A stretch of DNA of 64,000 bases from Candidatus Melainabacteria bacterium 17Bon1m (GTDB taxonomy: Bacteria; Cyanobacteriota; Vampirovibrionia; Obscuribacterales; Obscuribacteraceae), in assembly GCA_032128875.1 (NCBI GenBank), contig JAVLKG010000003.1, positions 129,008 to 193,007 of the forward strand. Reading direction: 5' to 3'. The notes beneath the pieces were generated by a model. That model saw only the letters and a program-made list of their open reading frames with translations, ran no database searches and was not told the origin of the DNA. The position numbers were made by a program, and so were the translations under genes. Shown one piece after another: positions 28,584 to 48,376 of the stretch (position 1 is its first letter; each line of letters begins with the position of its first letter).

Positions 28584-30200
28584 TTATTGAGCCAGGACTT
28601 CGAAAGTCACGTCGCTGAAATTGTTTTGGAACTGTTGCAGCGATATTCTCGTTGTGCCGCTTGTTGAGTCGTTGTTTGCGCCCCAGGGGTTGCGCACAGT
28701 GACCATGCCGCCGCCTTGTCCGTCAGGCTCGAAGTTTGTGATGCTGTATGCGTGGCGCGTTGGATAGCCGTCAGTCGACGTGCTCGAGAATAATCTAGGG
28801 TTGATGCCGGTTGTTACTGTTGCGCGTGAATCCGAGTTTAGCGCGCGCTCTAGACGGCTTGCTAATTCGCTATCCGAAGAGCTTACTGTCTCAGTGCTTC
28901 TGCCTGTCAGAAGTTCTGTCGCCCATGATGTTTGACCGCCTGCTCCTGCGTATTCTGTGGGTGTGTTTCCGCCACTTTCCATCGCGACTCTCGCCCGACG
29001 GAACATATTGGCGTGTTCACTCTGATACTGTCCAAACGCTCTTTCAAGTATTCCAGCCCATGTACCGTATTTGTGTCCGCCGTTGTATAGTCCGCGCTCG
29101 GCGTCAGTTGGTGCATTGATAGTAACTGGGTTGGCTGTATCGCCCGGGAAAGTGACGGTGTAAGTGCCGTTGCCGTTGTCGTGAATCATGTCACGAATGG
29201 CTTGTGGATTCGATGCTGCAAGTGATGAAACAGCAGCCAGATAGTAGCAATCACCAATCGTTCCTTGCACAACTGCATCTGGTGTGATGCTGAGAAGTGG
29301 ATCGTCAGGAGTGGCGAAGAGATTTGAATTCAGTTGATTTAGCTGACCTTCTCTCGTCCGGCTCGTGGTGTTTGACACCATAGTCTCTGTCTGTCCTGGG
29401 ATAGATTGGTAAGTTTGATTCAAATACTCTGCAACGTCGGTGGTGCTGATGCTGCTTTCGAAACCCCACTCATCGTTGCTCGCGCCGATTATATTGTCGA
29501 AGCTGTCGCTCACGCGCTGCAGGTGTGCGCGGTCGGTCTCGGAAATACTAGTACTTTGACGAGCGGCATCGAGCTCAGTGCGGGCGATATAGCCGTCATG
29601 GTCGGTGTCAAATCTATTGAAATTGGCTTCGCCTCTAAGTACTTCCATGGCGGGTGTAAGCGTGTCGCGCGCTGCAGTTTGCCGACCGAAGGCCTGTATA
29701 TCTCCGCGTGTTACACCGTCATCGTCGAGGGTGGAATATTCGTCGCGAGACAGTAACTGCATTGTGTTTCGACTGCTATACAGCGCTGCTACTGTTTGTG
29801 CGTCTTGATCTCTGAAGTCTCTATTTTGCACGGCAGCAGAGAGTTCGTCGGCACCCAACCACTGATCGTGATTAGTATCGATCCTGTCGAAAAGCGCCTC
29901 AGCGCGTTGCGCAAATTGGGCGTTGGTGAGCGTTGCGCTGGGTACCGGAGTGTTGGTTTGCTCGGCGCGCATTGCATTTCTTTCAGCAGCATCTTCGTCG
30001 AACAGCTCGAGACCGCCCAGCAGTGCCGTTGTGCCAGCGTCTTCGCGACTGTTCTTGTTGCGCGTGCGAGTGAGATTTGTCATCTCCTCGCTGCTGACGT
30101 CATTGCTCATTGCCGAGCTGGCGTCGTTCTTTCTCTCGCTTTTTTCGGCTGATCTTTCTGCGTTTTCGGTACGTGTTTGATTATTTCTATCGGAAGGCAT
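28584..30200 (-). CDS. EF-hand-containing calpain-like cysteine protease (peptidase C2)
   Basis: 'QGTIGDCYYLAA', 'HAYSI', 'RNPWG' triad; EF-hands 'DTNHDQWLGADE', 'DTDHDGYIARTE'. Confidence 0.9.
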   Translation of the reverse strand: MPSDRNNQTRTENAERSAEKSERKNDASSAMSNDVSSEEMTNLTRTRNKNSREDAGTTALLGGLELFDEDAAERNAMRAEQTNTPVPSATLTNAQFAQRAEALFDRIDTNHDQWLGADELSAAVQNRDFRDQDAQTVAALYSSRNTMQLLSRDEYSTLDDDGVTRGDIQAFGRQTAARDTLTPAMEVLRGEANFNRFDTDHDGYIARTELDAARQSTSISETDRAHLQRVSDSFDNIIGASNDEWGFESSISTTDVAEYLNQTYQSIPGQTETMVSNTTSRTREGQLNQLNSNLFATPDDPLLSITPDAVVQGTIGDCYYLAAVSSLAASNPQAIRDMIHDNGNGTYTVTFPGDTANPVTINAPTDAERGLYNGGHKYGTWAGILERAFGQYQSEHANMFRRARVAMESGGNTPTEYAGAGGQTSWATELLTGRSTETVSSSDSELASRLERALNSDSRATVTTGINPRLFSSTSTDGYPTRHAYSITNFEPDGQGGGMVTVRNPWGANNDSTSGTTRISLQQFQNNFSDVTFEVLAQ

Positions 30201-35411: not shown

Positions 35412-37628
35412 ATGCGTAAAAATCAAATTTTCGTTTTATGCGCTCTGGCTGCACTCTTTGTTATGCGTGTGGCGGGGCAATTCGCTGTGGCCTTTTTTCA
35501 CGTAGGATTTTTGCCACCTATGGAAGCATGGATGTCCGGCGTAATGCCCTATCCATGGTTGTTAGGAGCGCAGATTGCCATTATTTTTTTGATGGCGAAA
35601 GTTTGCCTTGACTTGCAGCGAGGCAACGGTTTCTTCGCCCGCAGAGGCGGGCGTTTTGGCAGATTTTTACTTGAGGGCGGCGCACTTTATCTGCTGGTAA
35701 TGAGCTTGCGCTACGTAATACATATGGCACTTTATCCACATGAGCGCTGGCTCGGCGGAGCAATACCAATCTTCTTTCATGTCGTATTGGCTGGTTTTGT
35801 CCTGGTATGGGGCAGTTTTCATTTACAGGCTGTCCGGAAAAAAGTTGGTAATCGCTGGACTGCGCGAGTATTTCGTGTGTTTGCCGTGCTCGGAATACTC
35901 ATGTGGGTTGCCTATCTGTTGGCACCGTATGTAATGGCACAACAATTTCATTTGCGCCCTGCCGTCTATGCCGTAAAGATTGAGCGTGATGTTCAAGTGC
36001 CTGTAGCCGCGGGCGTGATGTTGGTCGCAGACATCTATCATCCGATGGGCTTGGAGCGAAGCCCGACCGTGCTAGTGCGCATTCCCTATACAAAAACCCC
36101 CACCAACATGCTGACTGCCAATATTATTGGGCGTCTTTGGGCCGAGCGAGGTTATACGGCGGTTGTGCAATGTACGCGAGGCAGGGGCGGCTCCGGAGGA
36201 GAATATTATCCGCTCAGCAATGACCGAGAGGACGGAATCAAGACACTGCAATGGTTGTCGAAACAGTCATGGTATGACGGACATATTGCTGGCTGGGGCG
36301 GTTCGTCGTTTGGCATCAGCCAGTGGGCTATTGCAGACCGGTCTGCGCCAGGATTTTCCGCGATGCACATTTATGAAGCGAGCACAGATATCTATAGGAT
36401 GTTCCATCCAGGTGGGGCATTTTCACTTTATAGTGCGCTTGCTTGGACTGTAACGTGCCATGGGAAAACGGATTTGCCACAGTGGCCGAAGCCGGAGAAG
36501 ATTGCCGAAGGCGCTGATGTTTTCCCGCTAATTGATGCAGATTGCAATTCCACAGGAATGGAAGTGAACTTCTTCAATGATTGGGTCAGTCACTCGGAGC
36601 GTGATCTTTACTGGCAGAACATTGATGGTACTGAACGTACAAAGTCTCTCAAAGCTCCAGTTTTGCTAATGGCAGGTTGGTGTGATGCTTTCCTGCCGAC
36701 CCAGTTGGAGGATTATCTGAAAGTCAAGGCCGAAGCAGAACCGGATATCGCGCGACGAACAAAACTCGTGATTGGTCCTTGGATTCATGGAGATGAGTTT
36801 GTTCTGCCAGACGGAACCAAGCCTTCGTTATTTCGTGCAGCAACTCTGGCATTGAGTCTTGATTGGTTTGACCATATTGTTTTGGGTAGGCCACTTCCAG
36901 CCCAGACAGGTTGCTTAAACCTGCATCAACCTCGCGACTTGTGTCGATGCAATGTGCCGCATTTGTCTTCTGCTCCTATTCAAATTTTTATTATGGGTAA
37001 GAACTTTTGGCGTTCAGAAAATGAGTGGCCGCTGGCGCGGACGCAATTTACGAGTCTGTATTTGAACCGTGACAAACTGAGCTTTTCTAAGCCTGTCGAC
37101 AGACAAAAGCCTGATAGGTTTGTTTATGATCCAAGGGTCCCTGTGCCCACCGCAGGTGGTGCCATGATTGGAAAGGTTCCAGCGATGATAAAGCAGAGGG
37201 CCGCACAGTCTCGCCCTGATGTCCTGTGTTTCACGACTGATCTTCTCAAGCATGATGTTGAGTTGACCGGTCCGGTGAAAGCGGAGCTGTTTGTTTCGAG
37301 TGACGCGCCGTGCACCGATTTTACGGCGAAATTGGTTGACATTCATCCTGATGGAACAGCATACAACGTGTGTGACGGAATTCTTCGCCGCCGTTTTTCA
37401 GGCTCTAAGGTTCAGAAAATTGAAATTGAATTGTGGCCTACAAGCATGGTGTTCTTCAAAAATCACAAAATCAGATTGGATGTGAGCAGCAGCAATTTTC
37501 CTCGCTACGACCGTAATCCAAATACTGGCAGACCAAGCGCATTTGAAACAAATCCTCGCATTGCGATTCAGAAAGTTTTTCATGACAGCGATTTCCCTTC
37601 GCGGTTAATCGTGCCGGTGATTCCATGA
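35412..37628 (+). CDS. CocE/NonD-family hydrolase with N-terminal membrane domain
   Basis: 'RIPY', 'RGRGGSGG', nucleophile 'GGSSFG', 'GWCD', 'GPWIH', 'SSSNFPRYDRN'; start placed at ATG 35412. Confidence 0.9.
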   Translation: MRKNQIFVLCALAALFVMRVAGQFAVAFFHVGFLPPMEAWMSGVMPYPWLLGAQIAIIFLMAKVCLDLQRGNGFFARRGGRFGRFLLEGGALYLLVMSLRYVIHMALYPHERWLGGAIPIFFHVVLAGFVLVWGSFHLQAVRKKVGNRWTARVFRVFAVLGILMWVAYLLAPYVMAQQFHLRPAVYAVKIERDVQVPVAAGVMLVADIYHPMGLERSPTVLVRIPYTKTPTNMLTANIIGRLWAERGYTAVVQCTRGRGGSGGEYYPLSNDREDGIKTLQWLSKQSWYDGHIAGWGGSSFGISQWAIADRSAPGFSAMHIYEASTDIYRMFHPGGAFSLYSALAWTVTCHGKTDLPQWPKPEKIAEGADVFPLIDADCNSTGMEVNFFNDWVSHSERDLYWQNIDGTERTKSLKAPVLLMAGWCDAFLPTQLEDYLKVKAEAEPDIARRTKLVIGPWIHGDEFVLPDGTKPSLFRAATLALSLDWFDHIVLGRPLPAQTGCLNLHQPRDLCRCNVPHLSSAPIQIFIMGKNFWRSENEWPLARTQFTSLYLNRDKLSFSKPVDRQKPDRFVYDPRVPVPTAGGAMIGKVPAMIKQRAAQSRPDVLCFTTDLLKHDVELTGPVKAELFVSSDAPCTDFTAKLVDIHPDGTAYNVCDGILRRRFSGSKVQKIEIELWPTSMVFFKNHKIRLDVSSSNFPRYDRNPNTGRPSAFETNPRIAIQKVFHDSDFPSRLIVPVIP

Positions 37629-37886
37629 ACGGAACACCTGGTGGAGATTTCGGGTGTCCGTGAAGACGAAAAGGCGAGGGGGCGACTGGCTGATTTGGGC
37701 TACTTGATCTCCTTATTAGATAAACCTTCTCTCTTATTCAATCTATGCGGGGGTTTTTGGCCGCATACTGTGCTCCGTAATCGCGCTCAGGCGCATGGGT
37801 GCCCGTTATCCCCCGGTGGGGGATAGCTGCTTAAAGGTCTGGATCAAAACGATAACCGTTTTCATTTTCGTGTTAACCTTGAAATC

Positions 37887-39125
37887 ATGGACAGCCAGGT
37901 AAAACCAGTTTTCGCCCCAAATAGCATTTATTTGGACTACGCCGCGACCACCGCAGTGGATCGGCGCGTGCTCGACGCGATGTACGGCATCATGGCTCAG
38001 GGGCACACCGGCAATGCGCATGCACGCCATCATGTTTATGGTGCGGCGGCTCACCGCAGTGTTGAAGCTGCCCGACAGCAGGTCGCGGACGCTATTGGAG
38101 CGGATTCTGCCGAAATATTCTTTACTTCGGGCGCGACCGAGGCGAACAATCTCGCCATCAAGGGAATAGCGGCGCATCTCAAGGCCGAAGGGCGCATGCA
38201 CCTGGTCACCTCGGCAGTCGAGCATGCCAGCGTTTTGGAACCTTTGCGTGAGTTGGAAGCTCAGGGATTCGAACTGACTGTTCTCGGCGTGAAACCATGC
38301 GGCATGATTGAAGCCGACATGATTGAGCGCGCAATAAGACCTGATACCGGGTTGGTTTGCGTTCAGGCAGTCAATAACGAAGTCGGCGTAATTCAGCCGA
38401 TTAAAGAGATTGCAGTGATGTTGAAGGGTAGAGGAATACTCTTCCATTGCGATGCAGCGCAAGCGCTCGGCAAGACGAATTTCAAAGTCGACAGCAGCGC
38501 ATGCGCTGCGCAAACAGGGAGCCGCATGCGGCTCTCCTACGACAATGAGAGCACTGGTCCGGATTTCGTCAGTCTCTCTTCGCATAAAGTCTACGGTCCT
38601 CAAGGCATCGGTGCGCTTTATGTGCGAGCCGAAAAGAAGCACCTGCTTACTGCGGTAAGCCGCGGTGGCGGGCAGGAAGGTGGGCTGAGATCTGGAACAT
38701 TGCCGACTGCGCTTTGTGTTGGATTCGGCAAGGCGTGTTCTTTGCTCGAAGACGACACTCGGCATGTTCGTAGTTTGCGCTGGGCGTTTCTGAATCGATT
38801 GAGTTGGCTAAAACCCACAGTCTATGGTCATTCGCATTCTGATTGGAATGTGCCCGGTATACTCTGCGTTCGTTTTACAGGCATTGAAACCGAAACCCTC
38901 ATCATGGCATTGCCTGATCTCGCCTTCGGTATTGGAGCCGCATGCAGCAGCGGCGGTGCAAAATTGTCGCACGTCGTACGCGCCACCACCGGTAGTGATG
39001 AAGCTGCCCGCGAGAGTATGCGCATATCGTTTGGTCGTTTTACTACACATCAAGAAGTCCTCAGGGCTGCCGATTTGATAATCGAGGCAGTCGAAGAAAT
39101 TAGAGAAGTTCAGGGAGTTGCATAG
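37887..39125 (+). CDS. IscS/NifS-type cysteine desulfurase
   Basis: 'YLDYAATT', 'FTSGATEANN', 'DAAQ', 'SSHKVYGP' (PLP Lys), 'GAACSS' (catalytic Cys). Confidence 0.93.
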   Translation: MDSQVKPVFAPNSIYLDYAATTAVDRRVLDAMYGIMAQGHTGNAHARHHVYGAAAHRSVEAARQQVADAIGADSAEIFFTSGATEANNLAIKGIAAHLKAEGRMHLVTSAVEHASVLEPLRELEAQGFELTVLGVKPCGMIEADMIERAIRPDTGLVCVQAVNNEVGVIQPIKEIAVMLKGRGILFHCDAAQALGKTNFKVDSSACAAQTGSRMRLSYDNESTGPDFVSLSSHKVYGPQGIGALYVRAEKKHLLTAVSRGGGQEGGLRSGTLPTALCVGFGKACSLLEDDTRHVRSLRWAFLNRLSWLKPTVYGHSHSDWNVPGILCVRFTGIETETLIMALPDLAFGIGAACSSGGAKLSHVVRATTGSDEAARESMRISFGRFTTHQEVLRAADLIIEAVEEIREVQGVA

Positions 39126-40130
39126 ATGAAAATCGCGTTTGTAGGTAAGGGTGGATCGGGCAAAAGTACGCTCTCATCGCTGTTTATTCGCTATTTGCAA
39201 AACGTACGCAAACGCAACGTACTGGCAATCGATGCTGACTTAAACATGAACCTCGCCGGACTTCTTGGTGTGAAAGTCGATGAAAAGACGCTCATGGCGC
39301 GCCCTGAAGTAGCTGAGTCCATTCGCAATTTTCTTAAAGGCGGCAACAAACGGGTGCCGGACGTTTCGAAGTTTTTGCCGACAACTCCTCCGGGGGCTGG
39401 CTCAAACCTTGTTTGCTCTGCGCAAGAGCCTGGTCTTCAGCCTTTCTGTGTGAATGTTTCTCAATCACCGATAGTGAATTTGTTGACTGTCGGCTCTTAT
39501 GACAAAGATGGGATAGGGCAAACTTGCTACCACTCGCATCTCTTCGTCGCTGAGAATATCCTCTCGCATACGGTCACTTCGCCCGACTTCACTATCGTCT
39601 GCGATATGGTCGCCGGCACCGACGCATTTGCTTACTCCATGCATTTGCAATTCGATGCGATTGTTTTGATCGCTGAGCCCACACCGGAATCTACTGAAGT
39701 CTGCAAGTTGTATATGGACCTGGCTCGCCAATGCGGCGTTGATGAGCTGATTCATCTGGTTGGCAATAAGATCGAAGATGCTGACGATATCGAATTCATC
39801 AGCAAGACTGTGGATAAGAAGTTGCTCGTGTCCGTGCCGGCGATGCCTAAGCTGAAGAAAGCACGCCAGAGAGGAGAAATCGTTGGCGGTGAGTTGCTCG
39901 ACCCAACGCTAACGCAGGTGATGCGCATCATTGAGAACGAAGCTCAATTGCCGTCTATCAGCCCGGCGCAAAGGCTGGAGATGCTTCACAAACTTCATTT
40001 GAAATTGAACGATAAGCAATGGGTGCAACTCGGTTATGGCGACGTTGCAGATCAAATTGATCCCGATTTTCAATACCTTCCTCGGCACGCAGGAGTTGCT
40101 GCAGTCGGTTCTATAGGTAAATTAAGATGA
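39126..40130 (+). CDS. CooC/AcsF-like P-loop ATPase
   Basis: 'MKIAFVGKGGSGKST', 'AIDAD', 'DMVAG', 'GNKI'; 'TCYHSH' at the usual CxC site. Confidence 0.85.
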   Translation: MKIAFVGKGGSGKSTLSSLFIRYLQNVRKRNVLAIDADLNMNLAGLLGVKVDEKTLMARPEVAESIRNFLKGGNKRVPDVSKFLPTTPPGAGSNLVCSAQEPGLQPFCVNVSQSPIVNLLTVGSYDKDGIGQTCYHSHLFVAENILSHTVTSPDFTIVCDMVAGTDAFAYSMHLQFDAIVLIAEPTPESTEVCKLYMDLARQCGVDELIHLVGNKIEDADDIEFISKTVDKKLLVSVPAMPKLKKARQRGEIVGGELLDPTLTQVMRIIENEAQLPSISPAQRLEMLHKLHLKLNDKQWVQLGYGDVADQIDPDFQYLPRHAGVAAVGSIGKLR

Positions 40131-41743
40131 GCACGATTGAAGCACGAGAAGACAAGGCAGCTACCAAAAGAGCGGATCAGTGTTTGGCTGATGATTTGTT
40201 GTCCGCAGATAATTGCCGGCTGGAAGCCGGCGCTCTGTCCGCTGGCGCAAGTGGCGCTGCGGCCAATTCAGCAATCGATCGGGCGCGACCAAGGGTCAGA
40301 CCGGCCATGCACCCGGCTATTGCGCGTTTTCTCCAAAATGAAAAATTGGTCTTCTCTTTAGTTGATGGACTTGGATCACCGCTCAATGTGCTCTTTCCCA
40401 GGCATATCGAAGAGACGATTGGACGCTTCGAGCAGGTGTATAAAGATCGCCAAATGCAAGGCACGATTTACTACACATCGAAGCCAAACAAATCACTCGC
40501 ATTGAAAAAACAAGCTTCGACGACTGCCGTCGGATTGGATGTTTCTTCCGAAGGTGAGCTGAAGAGTGCGCTGGCTAGCGGCTTTCACCCGGAGCGAATC
40601 GAAGCGACTGGGCCAAAAAATATCGACTACCTTAGTCTTGCTATTCAGCAAAACGTTCTTATCAATGTGGATAATTTCACCGAGCTCAAGCAGATTGCGC
40701 AGATGAGCAGGTATTCTCCGCGCGGAAAGAAGGCGCGGGTCTTGGTGCGTCTTGATGGTTTTGAGCCCGGTCGCGTGAAGTTTACCGCTCAAGACAGCGC
40801 TTTCGGCACGCCGGTTAAGGATGCTCCAGCGATCATCGATTTCCTCCTTGAGCACAAGGACTGCATCGACTTCCATGGTTTCTCATTTCACTTCAATGCC
40901 GGTGATTACATACGGCGCCCACCAGCGATTGAAGAATGTTTGCAGCTCACTTTCCGCTGCCTGGAGTTAGGTTTAAACCCCCGCGCTATCGACATTGGCG
41001 GCGGCTATCGAATTCGCTACGCTGCCGATCAAGATGAGTGGAATACATATGTCGAAGAATTGAAAGCATCGGTTCTGGGCAATCGCGAATCGTTGACCTG
41101 GAATGATTCCGGTCTCGGATATCATCGCGAAGACGGCGTGTTGAAGGGCGCTCCCAACTTTATGGAGCACTACCATAAGAATGACGGGCACGAAGATTTT
41201 GCGTCTGTCATTGATACTCCGCTACCTGCGTTTGATGGATATTCCACGGCAAGAATTGTTTCCGACAATATGTTCGAGCTGCATATCGAGCCGGGTCGAG
41301 CGTTGTTGGATCAGTGCGGTATCACACTGGCGCACGTCAATTTCGATAAGACTTCTATTCTCGGTGAGCAGTTGTCCGTGCTCGATATGAATCGCACCAA
41401 CTTGAATTCAACGCAATTGAAATTAATGACCGATCCGATCGTCATTTATCGAAACACCGATAGAAAGCCAGCTGACAGAGGTGTTATGTATGTCGGAAAT
41501 TTGTGTTTGACGCACGACATGATTCAATATCACAAGACTTTCCCTGATGCGGTTCCGCAAACTGGGGATTTAGTCGCTTTTATAAACACCGCTGCATATC
41601 AAATGGATTTTGCCGAGACGCATGTTCTTGAGCAGTCGATTGCGAAGAAGGTTGCGGTCATTGAGAGTGAAGAAGGCGTATTCCGCTGGTTCCTCGATGA
41701 GCTGTACAACCCAATGGCTATTGCCGAGGGAGTCAAACCATGA
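40127..41743 (+). CDS. Fold-III PLP-dependent decarboxylase (DAP/Orn decarboxylase-like, Y4yA type)
   Basis: 'YYTSKPN' PLP Lys, 'DVSSEGE', 'DIGGG', 'EPGR', 'GNLC', 'AAYQ'. Confidence 0.88.
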   Translation: MSTIEAREDKAATKRADQCLADDLLSADNCRLEAGALSAGASGAAANSAIDRARPRVRPAMHPAIARFLQNEKLVFSLVDGLGSPLNVLFPRHIEETIGRFEQVYKDRQMQGTIYYTSKPNKSLALKKQASTTAVGLDVSSEGELKSALASGFHPERIEATGPKNIDYLSLAIQQNVLINVDNFTELKQIAQMSRYSPRGKKARVLVRLDGFEPGRVKFTAQDSAFGTPVKDAPAIIDFLLEHKDCIDFHGFSFHFNAGDYIRRPPAIEECLQLTFRCLELGLNPRAIDIGGGYRIRYAADQDEWNTYVEELKASVLGNRESLTWNDSGLGYHREDGVLKGAPNFMEHYHKNDGHEDFASVIDTPLPAFDGYSTARIVSDNMFELHIEPGRALLDQCGITLAHVNFDKTSILGEQLSVLDMNRTNLNSTQLKLMTDPIVIYRNTDRKPADRGVMYVGNLCLTHDMIQYHKTFPDAVPQTGDLVAFINTAAYQMDFAETHVLEQSIAKKVAVIESEEGVFRWFLDELYNPMAIAEGVKP

Positions 41744-43062
41744 AGTACGATCACATAACTGAATTGATTGGCAACACGCCGTTGCTGAAAATTCCGGCGC
41801 ATGTTCATGGTTTGAAGAACATCGATCTTTACGCGAAGTTGGAGATGATGAACCCTTTTGGTTCGGTCAAAGACCGCATCGCCTGGGGCATTATCAAGGA
41901 TGACATCGACGAGATTCAAGCCAAAGGCAAAACGATTTACGAAAATTCCAGCGGCAACACTGCAAAGGCATTGCAGGTAATCGCTAATATGCACGGCGTG
42001 AAGACGCGTTTGATCACGTATCTTGCCAAGGTTGATGGCGTAAAAGACATCGTTCGAATGCTTGGCGCGGACATCGAAGAGGTGCTTGGCGGCAGCGAAT
42101 GCTTCGATCCGAACGATCCAAATGATCCGCAATTTCTCATTGCCAAAATGGTCAAAGATGACCCGGAGAAAAACTATTTCCCGTCGCAATTCACTAATCC
42201 GAAAAATCCGGATGTGCATTACAAGACGACGGGCAAAGAAATCGTCGATGATTTGAAGGAGGTCGACTTCTTCTTTGGTGGTCTAGGAACCAGCGGTTCA
42301 ACACTTGGTGCTGCTCGCCGGATTCGCGATGAAGGAAATCCGGATCTCGTCTCTGTAGGCGTTTGTGCTAGCAAGAACGATTTCATTCCCGGCATTCGCA
42401 GCCTGGATCAGATGTGGGAATCCGGACTGTTCGTCAAAGAAAACTATAGCGACTTTGTGTATGTCGATTCTGGTGAGTCGGTTGACGCGATGATGGATTT
42501 GATCCGAGGCGCCGGTTTGCTTTGCGGGCCAACGAGCGGAGCCAGCTATCTGGGCGCTTTGCGCTACCTTCGGAAAATTGACGGACAACTGACCAAGAAG
42601 AAAAATGCAGTCTTTATCGCTTGCGATCGCGTCGAGTGGTATACCGACTACATTCGTGAGCGCCGTCCGCAATTGTTCGGACTGAAGATGAAGCCCGGCT
42701 CTCTGCGCGCCTTTGAGTTTGATCCCAGCGGTAGCAAAGAAAGATTCACCATTAAAGTGGACAAGGCTCAAACTTGGATCGATGACGAGAATCCCCTTAT
42801 CATCGATGTTCGTGGCAACCTTGCTTACAAAATGACGACTATTCCTAACGCGATCAACATTCCGTGGGAATTGTTTGAAACCATGATCGATGGTGCCGAT
42901 CCGTTTCCAAAAGATCGTCCGCTGTTGCTGGTATGTCCGGTCGGAGAGAAAACTGCGCGCTATGCTGCGTACCTGCAAACTCGCGGGTACCGGTCGTTTA
43001 GCCTTGACGGGGGCATACTCGAGTGGCGTAATGCAAGCTGCCGCTTGGTGAAAGTTTCGTAG
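41740..43062 (+). CDS. Cysteine-synthase-like PLP enzyme fused to C-terminal rhodanese
   Basis: 'IGNTPL', 'NPFGSVKDR', 'SSGNT', 'GLGTSGS'; rhodanese 'IDVR...IPNAINIP...VCPVG...LDGG'. Confidence 0.9.
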   Translation: MKYDHITELIGNTPLLKIPAHVHGLKNIDLYAKLEMMNPFGSVKDRIAWGIIKDDIDEIQAKGKTIYENSSGNTAKALQVIANMHGVKTRLITYLAKVDGVKDIVRMLGADIEEVLGGSECFDPNDPNDPQFLIAKMVKDDPEKNYFPSQFTNPKNPDVHYKTTGKEIVDDLKEVDFFFGGLGTSGSTLGAARRIRDEGNPDLVSVGVCASKNDFIPGIRSLDQMWESGLFVKENYSDFVYVDSGESVDAMMDLIRGAGLLCGPTSGASYLGALRYLRKIDGQLTKKKNAVFIACDRVEWYTDYIRERRPQLFGLKMKPGSLRAFEFDPSGSKERFTIKVDKAQTWIDDENPLIIDVRGNLAYKMTTIPNAINIPWELFETMIDGADPFPKDRPLLLVCPVGEKTARYAAYLQTRGYRSFSLDGGILEWRNASCRLVKVS

Positions 43063-43295
43063 CGAACTGAAACCAAATAGGCAAGCCGCCCGCGCTCTCA
43101 GTAATGCGATAACGTGTAGTAAACTGTTGTGGTACTTACTAAGGTTTTAATCGAAAGAAACACTTGACTGGGTTGTCAGAAGAAGATCTGAGATCATTTT
43201 TCAGTCAAGAGGAAGCCTAACCTAAAGACAAGCGTTTACAGTAAGTACTTTCGAGTAGATAGGAGACGGGGCGTCTCTCAAAGGGTGTATTTAGA

Positions 43296-44363
43296 ATGAA
43301 AAAGTTAGCCGTTACTATGCAAATGTCGCTCGGGCTGCTCGCCGGGACATTGATGTCACTTGCCACGCTCACCGGATGCGGACAGGCGACTGCTCCTCAG
43401 CAGGCGGTTTCCGCAGGTTGGGGCTACATAGACACCACTGGTAACGTGGCAATCCCACCGCAATTCGAGGCTGCGATGCCTTTCTCGCAAGATAGAGCGG
43501 GAGTACTCAAGGGCGGACGCTGGGGCTTTATTGACAAGAAAGGCACGTTCGTCATCCCCGCACAGTACAACACGGTCGAGTCCTTCTCTGAGGGGCGCGC
43601 AGCAGTACAGGTCGGGGACAAATGGGGCTTTATCGATTTGAACGGACGTATGGCGGTGCAACCAAATTGGGAAAACACCCAGCCATTCTCGGACGGCTGC
43701 GCACCTGTTCGCTACAACAAGCAATGGGGCTACGTCGGTAAAGAAGGCGAGACCATCATGCCTGCCAATGCCATGAATGTAAAGCCGATGACCGAAGGTC
43801 GCGGCGCCGTTCAGATGATGTATGACGCAAAGTGGAATCCGTGGGGCTTCGTCAACGACAAAGGTGAAGTCGTTATCAAGCAACAGTACGCCAGCGTTGT
43901 TCCGTTTAAAAACGGCGTTGCCGAAGTCAAAGATGAGAAGGGTAAGACTGGTCTGCTCGACCGCGACGGCGTCATCATCTACAAGGATGAAACCGAGTTG
44001 CCGTCACTCTTTCACGATGGTTTGGCAATTACGTCTAACAGAGGCAAGCAAGGATTTGCTGATTCTAAGGGCAACATCGTTATCCCGACCGAGTACGACC
44101 AGGTTGAGAATTTCACTGAAGGCATAGCAATGGTCCGCCAGGACCTGCGTTGGGGCTACGTCAACAACAAAGGCGAAATTGTCGCGAAGATGCAGTACGA
44201 CAAAGCAACGCCCTTCAAAGAAGGTTTGGCGGCTGTGAAGCTGGCCGGCGGGCGTTGGGGCTATCTCAATAGCAAAGGTAAGTTGGCGATTGAGCCGATC
44301 TACGACGAAGCCCAGCCTTTCTCTGAAGGGTTGGCAGCCGTAAAGCAAGAGCAAGCCAAGTAA
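43296..44363 (+). CDS. WG-repeat lipoprotein
   Basis: Lipobox-like LTGC; repeated 'WG(F/Y)I...G...I...Y....FSEG.A.V'. Confidence 0.9.
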   Translation: MKKLAVTMQMSLGLLAGTLMSLATLTGCGQATAPQQAVSAGWGYIDTTGNVAIPPQFEAAMPFSQDRAGVLKGGRWGFIDKKGTFVIPAQYNTVESFSEGRAAVQVGDKWGFIDLNGRMAVQPNWENTQPFSDGCAPVRYNKQWGYVGKEGETIMPANAMNVKPMTEGRGAVQMMYDAKWNPWGFVNDKGEVVIKQQYASVVPFKNGVAEVKDEKGKTGLLDRDGVIIYKDETELPSLFHDGLAITSNRGKQGFADSKGNIVIPTEYDQVENFTEGIAMVRQDLRWGYVNNKGEIVAKMQYDKATPFKEGLAAVKLAGGRWGYLNSKGKLAIEPIYDEAQPFSEGLAAVKQEQAK

Positions 44364-44539: not shown

Positions 44540-46000
44540 ATGCGAGACTTTGTCCTTTTGTACGTCAATGGCGTCGAACACCAGGTAAGCGGCGATGATG
44601 CGTTTTTGTCGCTGTCCGATTACTTGCGCTACTCACTGAATAAGTGCGGTACAAAAGTTGTTTGTGCAGAAGGGGATTGTGGCGCTTGCACAGTATTCCT
44701 GGGGCGTCTGAACGCGGCGAAGAATGGCATTGAGTACATCCCGGTCAACGCGTGCATCCAATACATGTATCAGTTGGATTGCACTCACATCGTCACAGTT
44801 GAAGGGCTAAAAGTCGACGGAGACCTCAACAGAATTCAGCAGTCGATGGTTGATTGTCACGGCGCACAGTGCGGTTATTGCACGCCCGGCTTTATCGTGG
44901 CTATGTGCTCGCTGTTCGAACAGTGCGATAAGAGCCAGAAGTCTTGCAATGTCACAAGGCAGGAAGTGAGTGATGCGCTCACAGGCAATCTCTGCCGTTG
45001 TACTGGATATGAGGCGATCATCAAAGCTGCGATGAGCGTCGATGAAAAAGAGTACAAACGTTTGGAGAATTTGTATCCCCCGCAGCCACTTCTGAGTGCG
45101 TTCAAAAAGCACCATGATGAGCCTGTCTTAGTGAAAGGCGAAGACGCAGAGTTTTTCAAGCCCACCGATGTTAAATCAGCGGTCGAGTATAAAAGCAAGC
45201 ATGCTGGTGTTGTCATCGTATCTGGTGGCACTGATGTGTGTGTCAATTTGAATAAGGGTCGCATCGAACCGAAGAACATAATGGTTCTCACCCATGTTGC
45301 TGGGCTGGATGACCTTGAGATAAACGGTAATACCGTCGTGGTTGGTGCGCGAGTTTCGCTGCGCAAACTGGAAGAGTTTTTCCAAAAGTCGCTGCCTGAG
45401 TTTCACCATATTTTGTGGGTCTTTGGTTCTCCCCAAATTCGATATGCCGGGACATTAGCCGGCAACATCGCTAACGGCTCTCCCATTGCTGATTCGCTGC
45501 CCTTCTTGTTTGTCTCCGGCGCGGAAGTTGAAGTGGCCGGGCTGAAAGGCGAGCGTCGTATCAAGGTCAATCAGCTCTATAGTGGTTACCGCAAAATGGT
45601 TTTGACTGACGACGAAGTCATCGTCAAGATTCACATCCCGATGCCGTCCAAATCAGCAAAGCTGAAGCTGTACAAAGTTTCAAAACGTGAGCATTTGGAT
45701 ATTTCCAGCTTCACTGCTGCAATTAGTTTGGAACGCAATGGCGACAAAATTTCCAATGCGCAAGTTGCATATGGTGGTGTTGCTGCGGTTGTTTTGAAAC
45801 TGGCGAAGACCGAAGAATTCCTCAACGGCAAGCCCTTCTCGCTGGAAACATTCCGCGAGGCCGGTGAAATTGCGATGAAAGAGATTACGCCGATTAGCGA
45901 TGTCCGCGGCTCGAAAGACTATCGGTTGCAGCTTGCAGCAAACATCATGGAAAAGTTTTACTTCGAAACCGCTGACGCGAAGGAGCTAGTATGTCCGTAG
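44540..46000 (+). CDS. xdhA: Xanthine dehydrogenase small subunit (2Fe-2S + FAD)
   Basis: 'GTKVVCAEGDCGAC', 'QCGYCTPG', 'GNLCRCTGY', 'SGGTD', 'GNIANGSPIAD'. Confidence 0.95.
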   Translation: MRDFVLLYVNGVEHQVSGDDAFLSLSDYLRYSLNKCGTKVVCAEGDCGACTVFLGRLNAAKNGIEYIPVNACIQYMYQLDCTHIVTVEGLKVDGDLNRIQQSMVDCHGAQCGYCTPGFIVAMCSLFEQCDKSQKSCNVTRQEVSDALTGNLCRCTGYEAIIKAAMSVDEKEYKRLENLYPPQPLLSAFKKHHDEPVLVKGEDAEFFKPTDVKSAVEYKSKHAGVVIVSGGTDVCVNLNKGRIEPKNIMVLTHVAGLDDLEINGNTVVVGARVSLRKLEEFFQKSLPEFHHILWVFGSPQIRYAGTLAGNIANGSPIADSLPFLFVSGAEVEVAGLKGERRIKVNQLYSGYRKMVLTDDEVIVKIHIPMPSKSAKLKLYKVSKREHLDISSFTAAISLERNGDKISNAQVAYGGVAAVVLKLAKTEEFLNGKPFSLETFREAGEIAMKEITPISDVRGSKDYRLQLAANIMEKFYFETADAKELVCP

Positions 46001-48348
46001 TCGGAAAAGACATGCCGCACGATTCAGCCGTTGGACACGTTAGCGGAGAGTCGATTTATATCGACGACATGCCGTCTGCGAAGAATGAATTGCTCGTTGA
46101 CTTCGTTGGCAGCCCGGTTGCATACGGGCACATCAGGTCGGTCGATTACAGCGAAGCGCTGAAAATCAAAGGCGTTGTCGCTTGCTACACATATAAAGAT
46201 CTGCCGGGCATCAATAAATTCGGTCCGATTATTCAAGACGAAGTCTTGCTCTGCGAAGACCATTCTTCTTTCATCGGAGAACCGATTGTTGTAATTGCCG
46301 CCGAGACCCGCAAAGCCTTGGCGAAGGCAAAGAAAGCCGTTAAGCTCGTTGTTGAAGAACTGGAGCCGGCTTTGAGCATTGATGCTGCGATAAAGAAGCA
46401 AGATTTTCTGGATAAAACATATCGAATCGCGCGCGGTGATGCCGAACGTGTTTTGAAAGAAGCCAAGCATAAGCTGGAAGGAACTTGCATCATCGGCGGT
46501 CAAGAGCACTTCTATCTTGAATCGCAAGCGGCGCTCGTAGTGCCGGGTGAGTACGATCAGTTGGTTGTTCATTCCTCCACGCAACACCCAAGTGAAATTC
46601 AACAGGTGCTGGCGAAAGTTTTGGGGCTGCAACAAAACCAAGTTGTCGTAGTTACCAAACGCATGGGCGGCGGCTTCGGCGGAAAAGAATCGCAAGCCAC
46701 GCACCCAGCTGGAATGGCGGCACTTGTGGCTTTGAAGACGAAGCGCCCAGCACGTATTATCTACACCAAAGATGACGACATGAAATTCACAGGCAAGCGT
46801 CATCCATTTCAAAACAACTTCCAAGTCGCCTTTGACGACAATGGTCGAATACTCGCGCTGAAAGCTCATCTCTATGCCGACGGCGGGGCTGCCGCTGATC
46901 TTTCGACGGCTGTGCTCGGGCGCGCCATCACTCACATCGACAATGCGTACTACATCGAAAACGCTGATGTCGTCGGGCAAATCTGCAAGACGAATTATCC
47001 TCCAACCACTGCTTTCCGCGGGTTTGGTGGACCACAAGGCGTGGCGACGATCGAAAGCATTGTTCAAGACATCGCTGCCTATCTGAAGAAAGATCCGCTC
47101 GACGTGCGCCTGGCGAATTTATATGGAATAACCGAGCGCAACACGACTCACTATGGTCAATTGTTGAAGCACAACACGCTGCCGCAGTTGTTTGACGAAA
47201 TAGTGGAGAGCTCTGACTACAGAAGTCGTCGCAAGCTCGTCGATAAGTTTAATTCCGAGTCGAGAACACATCTGAAGGGGCTCGCGCTCACGCCCGTTAA
47301 ATTCGGCATTTCGTTTACCAATACAATGCTCAACCAAGCCAATGCCCTGGTGAACATCTACCTCGACGGCACTATTCAGGTTTCTACCGGTGCAACCGAA
47401 ATGGGTCAGGGCGTTAACACAAACATCAAAATGCTGGTCGCGGACGAGTTTTCCATCGACCCGAAGAGCGTTATTGTGATGACGACTTCCACGGAGAAGA
47501 ACAACAATACGTCAGCGACAGCGGCATCATCAGCGACAGATTTGAATGGAAGCGCGGCGGTAAACGCCTGCCAGAAGATCAAAAAATCTATGGCGGAAGT
47601 TGCTGCGCGACACTTTGATCGTGTGGAAACCGGCATCGGCGCATTCCCTGACAGAATAGTTTTTGCCGACGGACACATCTATGACGAGCGCAGACCGCAC
47701 AACAAATTGAAGTGGCAAGAGCTTGTCGCCATGTCGTATCGCGAGCGCGTCAGCCTAGGCGAGCGTGGATACTACGCGACGCAAGGTATTGGCTTTGATT
47801 GGAGTAAAGGGCAAGGCTCGCCCTTTTTGTACTTTACGTGCGGTTGCTGTGTTGCCGAAGTCATCATCGATCGATTCACCGGTCAAATGAAAGTTGAACG
47901 CGTAGACATCCTGATGGATATCGGCAAGTCAATCAATCCCGGCATCAATCGTGGACAGGTGGTTGGCGGATTTGTTCAAGGAATGGGTTGGGTAACCAAC
48001 GAAGAGCTGAAGTATTCGGATAAAGGTGCGCTGCTTTCCTACTCGCCTACGACGTACAAGATTCCGAACATCCAAGACGTTCCGGCAGATTTGCATTGCA
48101 ATTTCATCGACAATCCAAACAACACGGTCAATGTGCGTGGCAGCAAAGCCGTTGGTGAACCGCCGCTGCTCTTGGGTCTTGCCGTATGGGCTGCGGTGAA
48201 AGATGCACTTGCCTATGCCGCAAAAGGACAAGTTCCGAAATTGAATTTGCCTGCAACTGGCGAAGAAATTTTGATGCGTTTAACTGAACTCAAAAAGACA
48301 ACGCTGTCCGTGAAGAGCAAAGGCAAAGAGCCCGCGAAGATCAGCTAG
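45991..48348 (+). CDS. xdhB: Xanthine dehydrogenase molybdopterin-binding subunit
   Basis: 'QEHFYLE', 'RMGGGFGGKES', 'AFRGFGGPQG', 'SKAVGEPP'. Confidence 0.96.
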   Translation: MSVVGKDMPHDSAVGHVSGESIYIDDMPSAKNELLVDFVGSPVAYGHIRSVDYSEALKIKGVVACYTYKDLPGINKFGPIIQDEVLLCEDHSSFIGEPIVVIAAETRKALAKAKKAVKLVVEELEPALSIDAAIKKQDFLDKTYRIARGDAERVLKEAKHKLEGTCIIGGQEHFYLESQAALVVPGEYDQLVVHSSTQHPSEIQQVLAKVLGLQQNQVVVVTKRMGGGFGGKESQATHPAGMAALVALKTKRPARIIYTKDDDMKFTGKRHPFQNNFQVAFDDNGRILALKAHLYADGGAAADLSTAVLGRAITHIDNAYYIENADVVGQICKTNYPPTTAFRGFGGPQGVATIESIVQDIAAYLKKDPLDVRLANLYGITERNTTHYGQLLKHNTLPQLFDEIVESSDYRSRRKLVDKFNSESRTHLKGLALTPVKFGISFTNTMLNQANALVNIYLDGTIQVSTGATEMGQGVNTNIKMLVADEFSIDPKSVIVMTTSTEKNNNTSATAASSATDLNGSAAVNACQKIKKSMAEVAARHFDRVETGIGAFPDRIVFADGHIYDERRPHNKLKWQELVAMSYRERVSLGERGYYATQGIGFDWSKGQGSPFLYFTCGCCVAEVIIDRFTGQMKVERVDILMDIGKSINPGINRGQVVGGFVQGMGWVTNEELKYSDKGALLSYSPTTYKIPNIQDVPADLHCNFIDNPNNTVNVRGSKAVGEPPLLLGLAVWAAVKDALAYAAKGQVPKLNLPATGEEILMRLTELKKTTLSVKSKGKEPAKIS

Positions 48349-48353
48349 TGCCC

Positions 48354-48376
48354 GGAGCGCCGGCTTCCAGCCTGCA
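48354..48376 (+). repeat. REP-like palindrome
   Basis: ggagcgccggcttccagcctgca; 21/22 identical to the reverse complement of 40214-40235. Confidence 0.65.

Follow-up and report, generated by a model that had tools for sequence, protein, structure and literature searches.

What might a bacterium make with a cysteine desulfurase, a P-loop ATPase, an amino acid decarboxylase and a cysteine-synthase-like enzyme fused to a rhodanese, all encoded by four abutting genes? We addressed this question in Candidatus Melainabacteria bacterium 17Bon1m (family Obscuribacteraceae), using a stretch of 64,000 nucleotides from contig JAVLKG010000003.1 (GCA_032128875.1, positions 129,008 to 193,007 of the forward strand), which we call the window. 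Our reading, to which we give a probability of about 0.5, is that the four genes constitute a single operon, induced by scarcity of a metal, most likely zinc, whose enzymes build a small sulfur- and nitrogen-containing metal-binding molecule. It draws on established gene identities, catalytic residues and co-conservation, together with an operator motif and its regulon context. The operon is real, conserved and uncharacterised; its parts are ordinary, their combination is new, and it is most likely devoted to a metal-starvation ligand. No published description of the module was found in the literature covered by our search, which did not extend to supplements and subscription journals.

The four products were assigned to families with Pfam and NCBIfam, and their coordinates are given in Table 1. 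An earlier reading made from the sequence alone (the sequence-only reading) had described abutting genes with junctions of the translationally coupled type, and the coordinates and overlaps read as it described them. At the desulfurase/ATPase junction (gcaTAGATGaaa), the TAG at 39123-39125 is directly followed by the ATG at 39126. The ATPase/decarboxylase junction (agATGAgc) and the decarboxylase/fusion junction (ccATGAag) are both 4-nt ATGA overlaps, with the ATG at 40127 and a TGA ending at 40130 in the former, and the ATG at 41740 and a TGA ending at 41743 in the latter. Both cysteine motifs reported earlier, GAACSS in the desulfurase and VCPVG in the rhodanese part of the fusion, were found. 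The partners it had listed as missing were likewise absent: the window's genome (7.55 Mb, 93% complete) has no IucA/IucC gene for a nonribosomal-peptide-synthetase-independent siderophore (NIS) synthetase and no Prismane gene for a CO dehydrogenase, and there is no SbnB or isc/suf scaffold among the ten annotated neighbours. The module is present in a single copy in this genome.

Table 1. The four genes of the operon and the elements upstream of it, in window coordinates
Feature	Coordinates	Strand	Family match or remark
IscS/NifS-like class V cysteine desulfurase, P0001, 412 aa	37887-39125	+	Aminotran_5 1e-65
CooC/MinD-class P-loop ATPase, P0002, 334 aa	39126-40130	+	CbiA 1.3e-9, weak NifH-type match
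LysA/SbnH-like fold-III PLP decarboxylase, P0003, 538 aa, N-terminal extension	40127-41743	+	Orn_Arg_deC_N 1.2e-24
CysK/CysM/SbnA-like PLP domain with C-terminal single-domain rhodanese, P0004, 440 aa	41740-43062	+	PALP 7e-48, Rhodanese 7e-13
Candidate Fur-family (Zur-type) operator AACGATAACCGTTTTCATT, 19-nt imperfect palindrome	37848-37866	n/a	Conserved in relatives
GC-rich hairpin TATCCCCC-GGT-GGGGGATA, upstream of the palindrome	37807-37825	+	Kept in close relatives L002-L008

Every one of these proteins comes from a large housekeeping superfamily, which would suit an account by ordinary metabolism: a spare cysteine synthase, a diaminopimelate decarboxylase and an Fe-S desulfurase as chance neighbours, next to an unrelated MinD/ParA-type ATPase. 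All four products nevertheless score far under the curated housekeeping cut-offs. P0001 shares with IscS-type desulfurases the lysine that binds pyridoxal phosphate (PLP) and the persulfide-forming cysteine loop, but reaches only 384 and 378 bits against two IscS models with cut-offs of 548 and 643, and it has no adjacent Isc/Suf scaffold (no NifU, IscU or Suf family member among the ten neighbours scanned). P0003 shares the PLP lysine, the GGG and EPGR motifs and the C-terminal cysteine of fold-III PLP decarboxylases, but as a diaminopimelate decarboxylase it scores 123.7 bits against a lysA cut-off of 297.9. P0004 has the PLP lysine and SGNT loop of the cysteine synthases CysK and CysM, and scores 150.1 bits with the cysKM model (cut-off 344), 144.7 with cysM (394), 123.9 with cysK (351) and 141 with the SbnA family model (350). 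A canonical LysA (429.8 bits) is encoded on another contig of the window's genome, two CysK/M genes above cut-off lie elsewhere, and so do four more class-V desulfurase-like matches. Because canonical LysA and CysK/M are encoded elsewhere, the operon genes, as judged by their sequences, are not the housekeeping copies, and the concern that they might prove to be ordinary CysK and LysA was not borne out. Ordinary metabolism would also leave aside a gene order with 4-nt overlaps that is conserved across phyla and a conserved metal-regulator operator upstream, and we regard it as very improbable.

Conservation was evaluated in a set of 81 loci, comprising the window and the best 80 of at least 555 fusion-encoding stretches, with one genome per species; individual loci carry L numbers. 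The set spans at least three phyla, with Obscuribacterales, Micavibrio and other alphaproteobacteria, Bdellovibrionota and Actinobacteria represented. The fusion protein is 75-95% identical in Obscuribacterales/Melainabacteria and Micavibrio relatives, and 45-47% identical in Streptomyces, Nocardia, Hoyosella and Actinokineospora. The decarboxylase gene stands directly before the fusion gene in 79 of the 81 loci, the other two being cut by a contig end. A class V desulfurase is linked to the module in 62 loci: those of the window's type have it upstream, and the actinobacterial loci and a second Obscuribacterales type have it downstream. The ATPase is linked in 41. The sequence-only reading had staked its case on co-occurrence of the four families in other genomes, and they were found to be co-conserved, with decarboxylase and fusion scored in 81/81 loci, the desulfurase in 62/81 and the ATPase in 41/81. 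Of 24 other genomes in the taxonomic family to which the window belongs, 19 encode the fusion; 16 genomes that represent different families in the same order or class all lack it.

The accessory genes around this core vary: FAD amine oxidase was found in 17 loci, GNAT and methyltransferase genes in 15 each, BT1/MFS transporters in 11 and Asp/Asn-hydroxylase-like genes in 9. In Streptomyces, an ATP-grasp gene (6 loci) and an Opp-type ABC transporter were found; as just 6 loci carry ATP-grasp, its role as an actinobacterial stand-in for the ATPase was rejected as unsupported. A lead from the Y4yA family was also dropped, as the listed papers naming Y4yA treat rhizobial symbiosis plasmids and give no function. 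Two proteins without a named family accompany the module. One, of ~376 aa and without a Pfam or NCBIfam family, occurs in nine Micavibrio/alphaproteobacterial loci (for example L013, 5153-6238), ~3.6-6.1 kb upstream of the fusion gene (median 4.6 kb). The other, a distinct 514-aa protein, was observed in 14 Obscuribacterales-type loci.

Evidence that the operon may answer to a metal comes from the palindrome upstream of it, 20 nt in front of the first start codon. L002, L005 and L008 carry it unchanged and L004 with a single base replaced, while L003, L006, L007 and L011 have variants, that of L011 being a perfect 8-3-8 palindrome. For comparison, we used the actinobacterial Zur box taaTGaNAANNNTTNtCANta, with its core TGaNAANNNTTNtCA, from PMC5472717, and the E. 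coli Zur motif TRWNAYRWTATAWYRTNWCA from PMC6103462. The window's palindrome fits the published Zur boxes, with one mismatch to the actinobacterial core. This core was found within one mismatch at 23 of the 80 loci with upstream DNA, and the E. coli motif within two mismatches at 7 of the 80, with clear motifs in proteobacterial relatives. Zur-type boxes thus total 30/80, against backgrounds of 0.061 and 0.008 matches per 451 bp. In Micavibrio L016, a zero-mismatch E. coli motif stands just before the operon, where 0.07 would be expected by chance. Upstream of the palindrome, the hairpin at 37807-37825 may terminate the preceding gene or be part of a promoter. A promoter and terminator scan gave no signals above shuffle expectation and no plus-strand promoter call near the palindrome, and an Rfam scan of 37500-43400 returned no families at E<=1. 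In the RNA-labelled runs X2-X4, the operon stretch was recovered in 10-16 kb contigs of flat depth that include neighbouring genes; these contigs demonstrate the presence of the stretch, and neither its expression nor its operon structure.

The same palindrome occurs in the window's genome at 11 sites within three mismatches, compared with a mean of 2.5 sites for 39 control palindromes. Apart from the window's own, these sites precede an operon of tonB-like and FUR-family genes, a TonB-dependent receptor, two MerC-like membrane proteins, one of which has a Cys/His-rich N-terminus, and a ZitB-like cation diffusion facilitator (CDF). Repeated copies cluster in two islands, C2:814006-818853 and C17:20170-39070 (L081-L083): one holds the tonB-like and FUR genes, a receptor with a CarboxypepD_reg domain and the MerC-like protein with the Cys/His-rich N-terminus, and the other the ZitB-like CDF, the second MerC-like protein and several family-less proteins. 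A FUR-family gene was found within 9 kb of the module in 24 of the 81 loci; in Micavibrio L013 and L016 the two genes directly adjoin, regulator next to fusion. When 28 module-linked FURs from elsewhere were queried, 20 had a match among the four FUR paralogues of the window's genome, and for 17 of these the best match was the paralogue of the palindrome-preceded tonB-like operon. Only this paralogue hits the Zur model (44 bits); of the others, two are Fur-like and one is Irr/PerR-like. The Micavibrio regulators have Zur as their best match, at 102 bits.

No member of the ZnuA family (PF01297) was found in the window's genome, at its 93% completeness, and cobW/COG0523-type matches there are weak (best 67 bits), so the usual set for zinc uptake and chaperoning may be missing. 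Zinc is our best guess for the metal sensed in this lineage. Metallophore clusters under Zur control exist, that for ethylenediamine disuccinate (EDDS) being one example. The sequence-only reading had listed a metal ligand among possible products, and the Zur-type operator and the regulon context favour that option. The decarboxylated product that it proposed is a putative one.

The catalytic residues of the three PLP enzymes are kept across the module. In P0001, the PLP lysine Lys234 (SSHK) and Cys353 (GAACSS) were found in 62/62 module-linked homologues. P0003, which aligns to 2p3e, retains the EPGR and IGGG motifs, and among 79 sequences its PLP lysine Lys119 and its Cys460 are present in 99%. 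In P0004, the PLP lysine Lys44, Cys121 and the rhodanese Cys399 are invariant in 81/81 sequences. The S70-S71-G72-N73-T74 loop, which binds the substrate carboxylate, is also invariant; the rhodanese region aligns to single-domain sulfurtransferases with its cysteine in register. Compared with the usual IscS pattern, P0001 has an insertion of ~20 residues right before the PLP lysine (residues ~199-226, window 38480-38570), a stretch that varies among the module-linked homologues. A 33-nt inverted repeat has one arm (40214-40246) where the decarboxylase gene encodes its N-terminal extension, and its second arm (48344-48376) right at the end of an xdhB-like gene; the arms are 82% complementary with a 22-nt exact core, which is itself a small GC hairpin.

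From these parts we infer the metal, the substrates and each chemical step, with a product that may or may not be secreted. The dedicated IscS-like desulfurase would take sulfur off L-cysteine as a persulfide and hand it to the invariant rhodanese Cys399 of the fusion. The fused CysK/SbnA-like domain would form aminoacrylate from O-phospho- or O-acetylserine, and the delivered sulfur would attack it, possibly twice, as in the iterative aspergillomarasmine A (AMA) synthase, to give a cysteine-persulfide or a lanthionine-like amino acid. The LysA/SbnH-like decarboxylase would then strip a carboxylate, leaving an aminoethyl-thio unit, either cysteamine- or thialysine-like. More speculatively, if the intermediate is lanthionine-like, it would correspond to diaminopimelate as its thia-analogue and so would suit a LysA-derived enzyme. 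The Cys-x-His CooC-class ATPase, as an accessory and not a core enzyme, would handle the metal, by loading or unloading the ligand or by serving a client protein. CysM takes its sulfur from the protein-bound thiocarboxylate of CysO instead of from free sulfide. The CysM/CysO system of Mycobacterium tuberculosis (3DWG) is among the top fold matches of P0004, whose proposed carrier differs in being a fused rhodanese persulfide and not a ubiquitin-like thiocarboxylate. The sulfur relay suggested by the sequence-only reading fits the residues observed (rhodanese cysteine 81/81, desulfurase lysine and cysteine 62/62).

Several results weigh against a zinc-starvation ligand made in this way. No desulfurase was found within 9 kb in 19 of the 81 loci, nor an ATPase in 40, including the close relative L006, and the 26 actinobacterial loci yielded no ATPase (0/26) with a hidden Markov model (HMM) search included. 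The window palindrome has one mismatch to the actinobacterial Zur core of PMC5472717; classic Fur boxes match this core pattern too, which leaves room for iron or another metal. The maximum among the 39 control palindromes was 10 sites. The candidate regulator scores higher with a Bacillus-type Fur model (96.7 bits) than with the Zur model (44 bits), and for the regulator of the window's lineage all NCBIfam scores fell under the cut-off. No exporter or importer gene is present in the window's operon. The nearest characterised enzymes with a PALP and a rhodanese-like domain use amino-acid nucleophiles, form C-N and not C-S bonds, and need no desulfurase. Moving the sulfur of cysteine into a cysteine-like product also looks wasteful, unless that product is a persulfide, a thioether or built on a non-cysteine scaffold.

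The two-domain enzyme raises the possibility of a different chemistry under the same regulation and purpose. The fusion would join O-phosphoserine to an amino acid or amine, forming a C-N bond, and the SbnH-like decarboxylase would make an ethylenediamine-type unit, as SbnH itself does and as has reportedly been proposed for EDDS. The product would be a sulfur-free aminopolycarboxylate or polyamine chelator, and the rhodanese and desulfurase would have a regulatory, structural or side role. The model of P0004 (predicted local distance difference test score, pLDDT, 80) has AMA synthetase (8H4H/8H4Q) as its top Foldseek match over both domains, with E 5e-26, 21% identity, 476-485 columns and a root-mean-square deviation of 21 Å, the last because the domain orientation differs; CBS, SbnA and CysM follow. 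According to PMC12751119, AMA synthase joins O-phosphoserine to L-Asp, giving a zinc chelator, and Fda4, a PLP enzyme that carries a rhodanese-like domain, uses L-Ala as the partner of O-phosphoserine in its condensation, after which the FAD enzyme Fda3 frees L-2,3-diaminopropionate (L-Dap). The characterised two-domain relatives therefore do C-N chemistry. The enzymes of Aspergillus oryzae (AMA synthase) and Fusarium poae (Fda4) share with P0004 a two-domain layout, with a rhodanese-type domain placed after a CysK-like PLP domain, and make or feed metal-chelating or Dap-containing products. The SbnA-family score of 141 bits, near the 145-150 of the CysM models, and the place of SbnH as the decarboxylase of a siderophore pathway are in keeping with this chemistry, as is the lack of a nearby desulfurase at 19/81 modules. 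So is the FAD amine oxidase that follows the module in 17/81 loci, which together with GNAT and MFS genes recalls fda3, fda5 and fda2.

The fungal enzymes have no partner desulfurase, decarboxylase or ATPase. P0004 keeps an invariant catalytic cysteine in its rhodanese (81/81), within a loop that is typical of sulfurtransferases and can be aligned with single-domain rhodaneses, and its rhodanese region gave no sequence match to the AMA synthase chains at E<=1. A desulfurase with invariant lysine and cysteine is linked in 62/81 loci, and no SbnB-like gene was found in the window. We consider the sulfur-free chelator the main rival, though unlikely, and prefer the sulfur relay.

The ATPase P0002 has a deviant Walker A motif (GKGGSGKST, residues 7-15), of which G7, K8, G9, G10, G12, K13 and T15 are invariant in 20 sequences. 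C134-Y-H136 is invariant in 41/41 sequences, and H148 (98%) and H291 (95%) are nearly so. The sole PDB sequence match is CooC1 (3kje, E 5.8e-6), which is also the best fold match of the model (pLDDT 89; E 1.7e-9, TMq 0.55, 18% identity), followed by MinD, NifH, ParA and the ATPase-type HypB. CooC1 of Carboxydothermus hydrogenoformans (3KJE) is the nickel-insertion ATPase of CO dehydrogenase, and its metal motif is C-x-C. P0002 shares with it the fold, the deviant Walker A and a cysteine at the position of the metal motif, but differs in being ~80 residues longer, with a helical C-terminal part, and in that the alignment reads 'cyc' in CooC1 where the P0002 family has C-Y-H. No Prismane (PF03063) or CO dehydrogenase gene was found in the window's genome (93% complete) or among the neighbours. 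Because C-Y-H replaces C-x-C and the genome has no Prismane-family CO dehydrogenase, P0002 is CooC-like in fold and class, and is not CooC by motif or client. The earlier label of a CooC-like ATPase thus holds for fold and class and fails for the metal motif.

Two further arrangements of this ATPase family were observed. The close relative L006 (2427-6550), whose fusion is 93% identical, has the desulfurase, a 24-nt gap, the decarboxylase and the fusion, with the ATPase gene absent; this natural loss indicates that the ATPase is dispensable for retention of the three-enzyme core. In L035, L036, L044, L048, L049 and L050, a second CooC-like ATPase paralogue lies -26 to +50 nt after a FUR-family gene, the two standing ~3 kb downstream of the module in the second Obscuribacterales-type layout.

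An ATPase of a metal-insertion and assembly class (CooC, HypB, NifH), with invariant cysteine and histidines, could also mean that the metal is spared or trafficked inside the cell. The product would then be no secreted metallophore and instead a thiol or persulfide of low molecular weight, kept in the cytoplasm to buffer zinc or mobilise it, or the ATPase itself would act, under metal starvation, as a metallochaperone for one of the enzymes or another client. The lack of an exporter or importer gene in the window's operon and the weak cobW/COG0523-type hits are in line with this. Set against it are the MFS or ABC transporters that adjoin the module at other loci, the palindrome at a TonB-dependent receptor and TonB, as would suit a complex taken up from outside, and the dispensability of the ATPase in half of the loci. 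An intracellular role appears quite unlikely to us.

How far do known metallophore systems anticipate this operon? To our knowledge, only a few pathways make zinc-scavenging small molecules: those of the opine-type staphylopine and pseudopaline, EDDS, coelibactin and the fungal marasmines. A comparable pairing is that of SbnA and SbnH in staphyloferrin B biosynthesis of Staphylococcus aureus, likewise metal-regulated, where a CysK-like beta-replacement enzyme works with a LysA-like decarboxylase. The EDDS (aes) cluster also pairs a CysK-like enzyme with a LysA-like decarboxylase. In Amycolatopsis japonicum this cluster is controlled by Zur. The operon resembles both of these systems, and also the fungal marasmine route. 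Staphyloferrin B synthesis has SbnB and NIS synthetases, whereas the window lacks an SbnB-type dehydrogenase and the genome IucA/IucC. Compared with staphyloferrin B and EDDS, the window's operon adds the rhodanese fusion, the desulfurase and the CooC-class ATPase.

Other genes in the window were noted in passing. A xanthine-dehydrogenase-type pair on the plus strand (44540-48348) combines a molybdopterin subunit with a subunit in which 2Fe-2S and FAD parts are fused; the two overlap at 45991-46000. The idea that the desulfurase sulfurates the Mo cofactor of these enzymes was rejected, because the synteny is limited to 7-8 close relatives and the module elsewhere occurs without those genes. 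Between operon and pair lies a plus-strand gene (43296-44363) for a 355-aa protein with seven WG-containing beta repeats (PF14903, 1.5e-87); it holds six copies of a 27-nt repeat register and adjoins the module only in close relatives. On the minus strand, 28584-30200 encodes a 538-aa protein with EF-hand motifs and a calpain-family protease domain (Peptidase_C2 1.6e-14), which is unusual in bacteria.

A bolder version of our reading can be put forward tentatively, and we think it rather doubtful as a whole. The operon would be an undescribed thiol or thioether zincophore pathway with a persulfide relay, an AMA-synthase-like enzyme and a LysA-like finisher; the Cys-x-His ATPase would be a new kind of zinc metallochaperone; and in bacteria such as this one, in which no ZnuA family member was found and COG0523-type hits are weak, zinc would be acquired with high affinity mainly through the module together with the TonB-dependent receptor under the same control and the His/Cys-rich MerC-like proteins. 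The fusion/decarboxylase pair spans predatory bacteria, non-photosynthetic relatives of cyanobacteria and actinomycetes, and relatives of AMA are of interest as metallo-beta-lactamase inhibitors. If the operon makes a sulfur-bearing metal ligand, the compound would represent a new chemotype, its synthesis would put the persulfide relay to a new use, and a new class of metallochaperone might come with it. If true, it would explain the zinc supply of organisms without ZnuABC.

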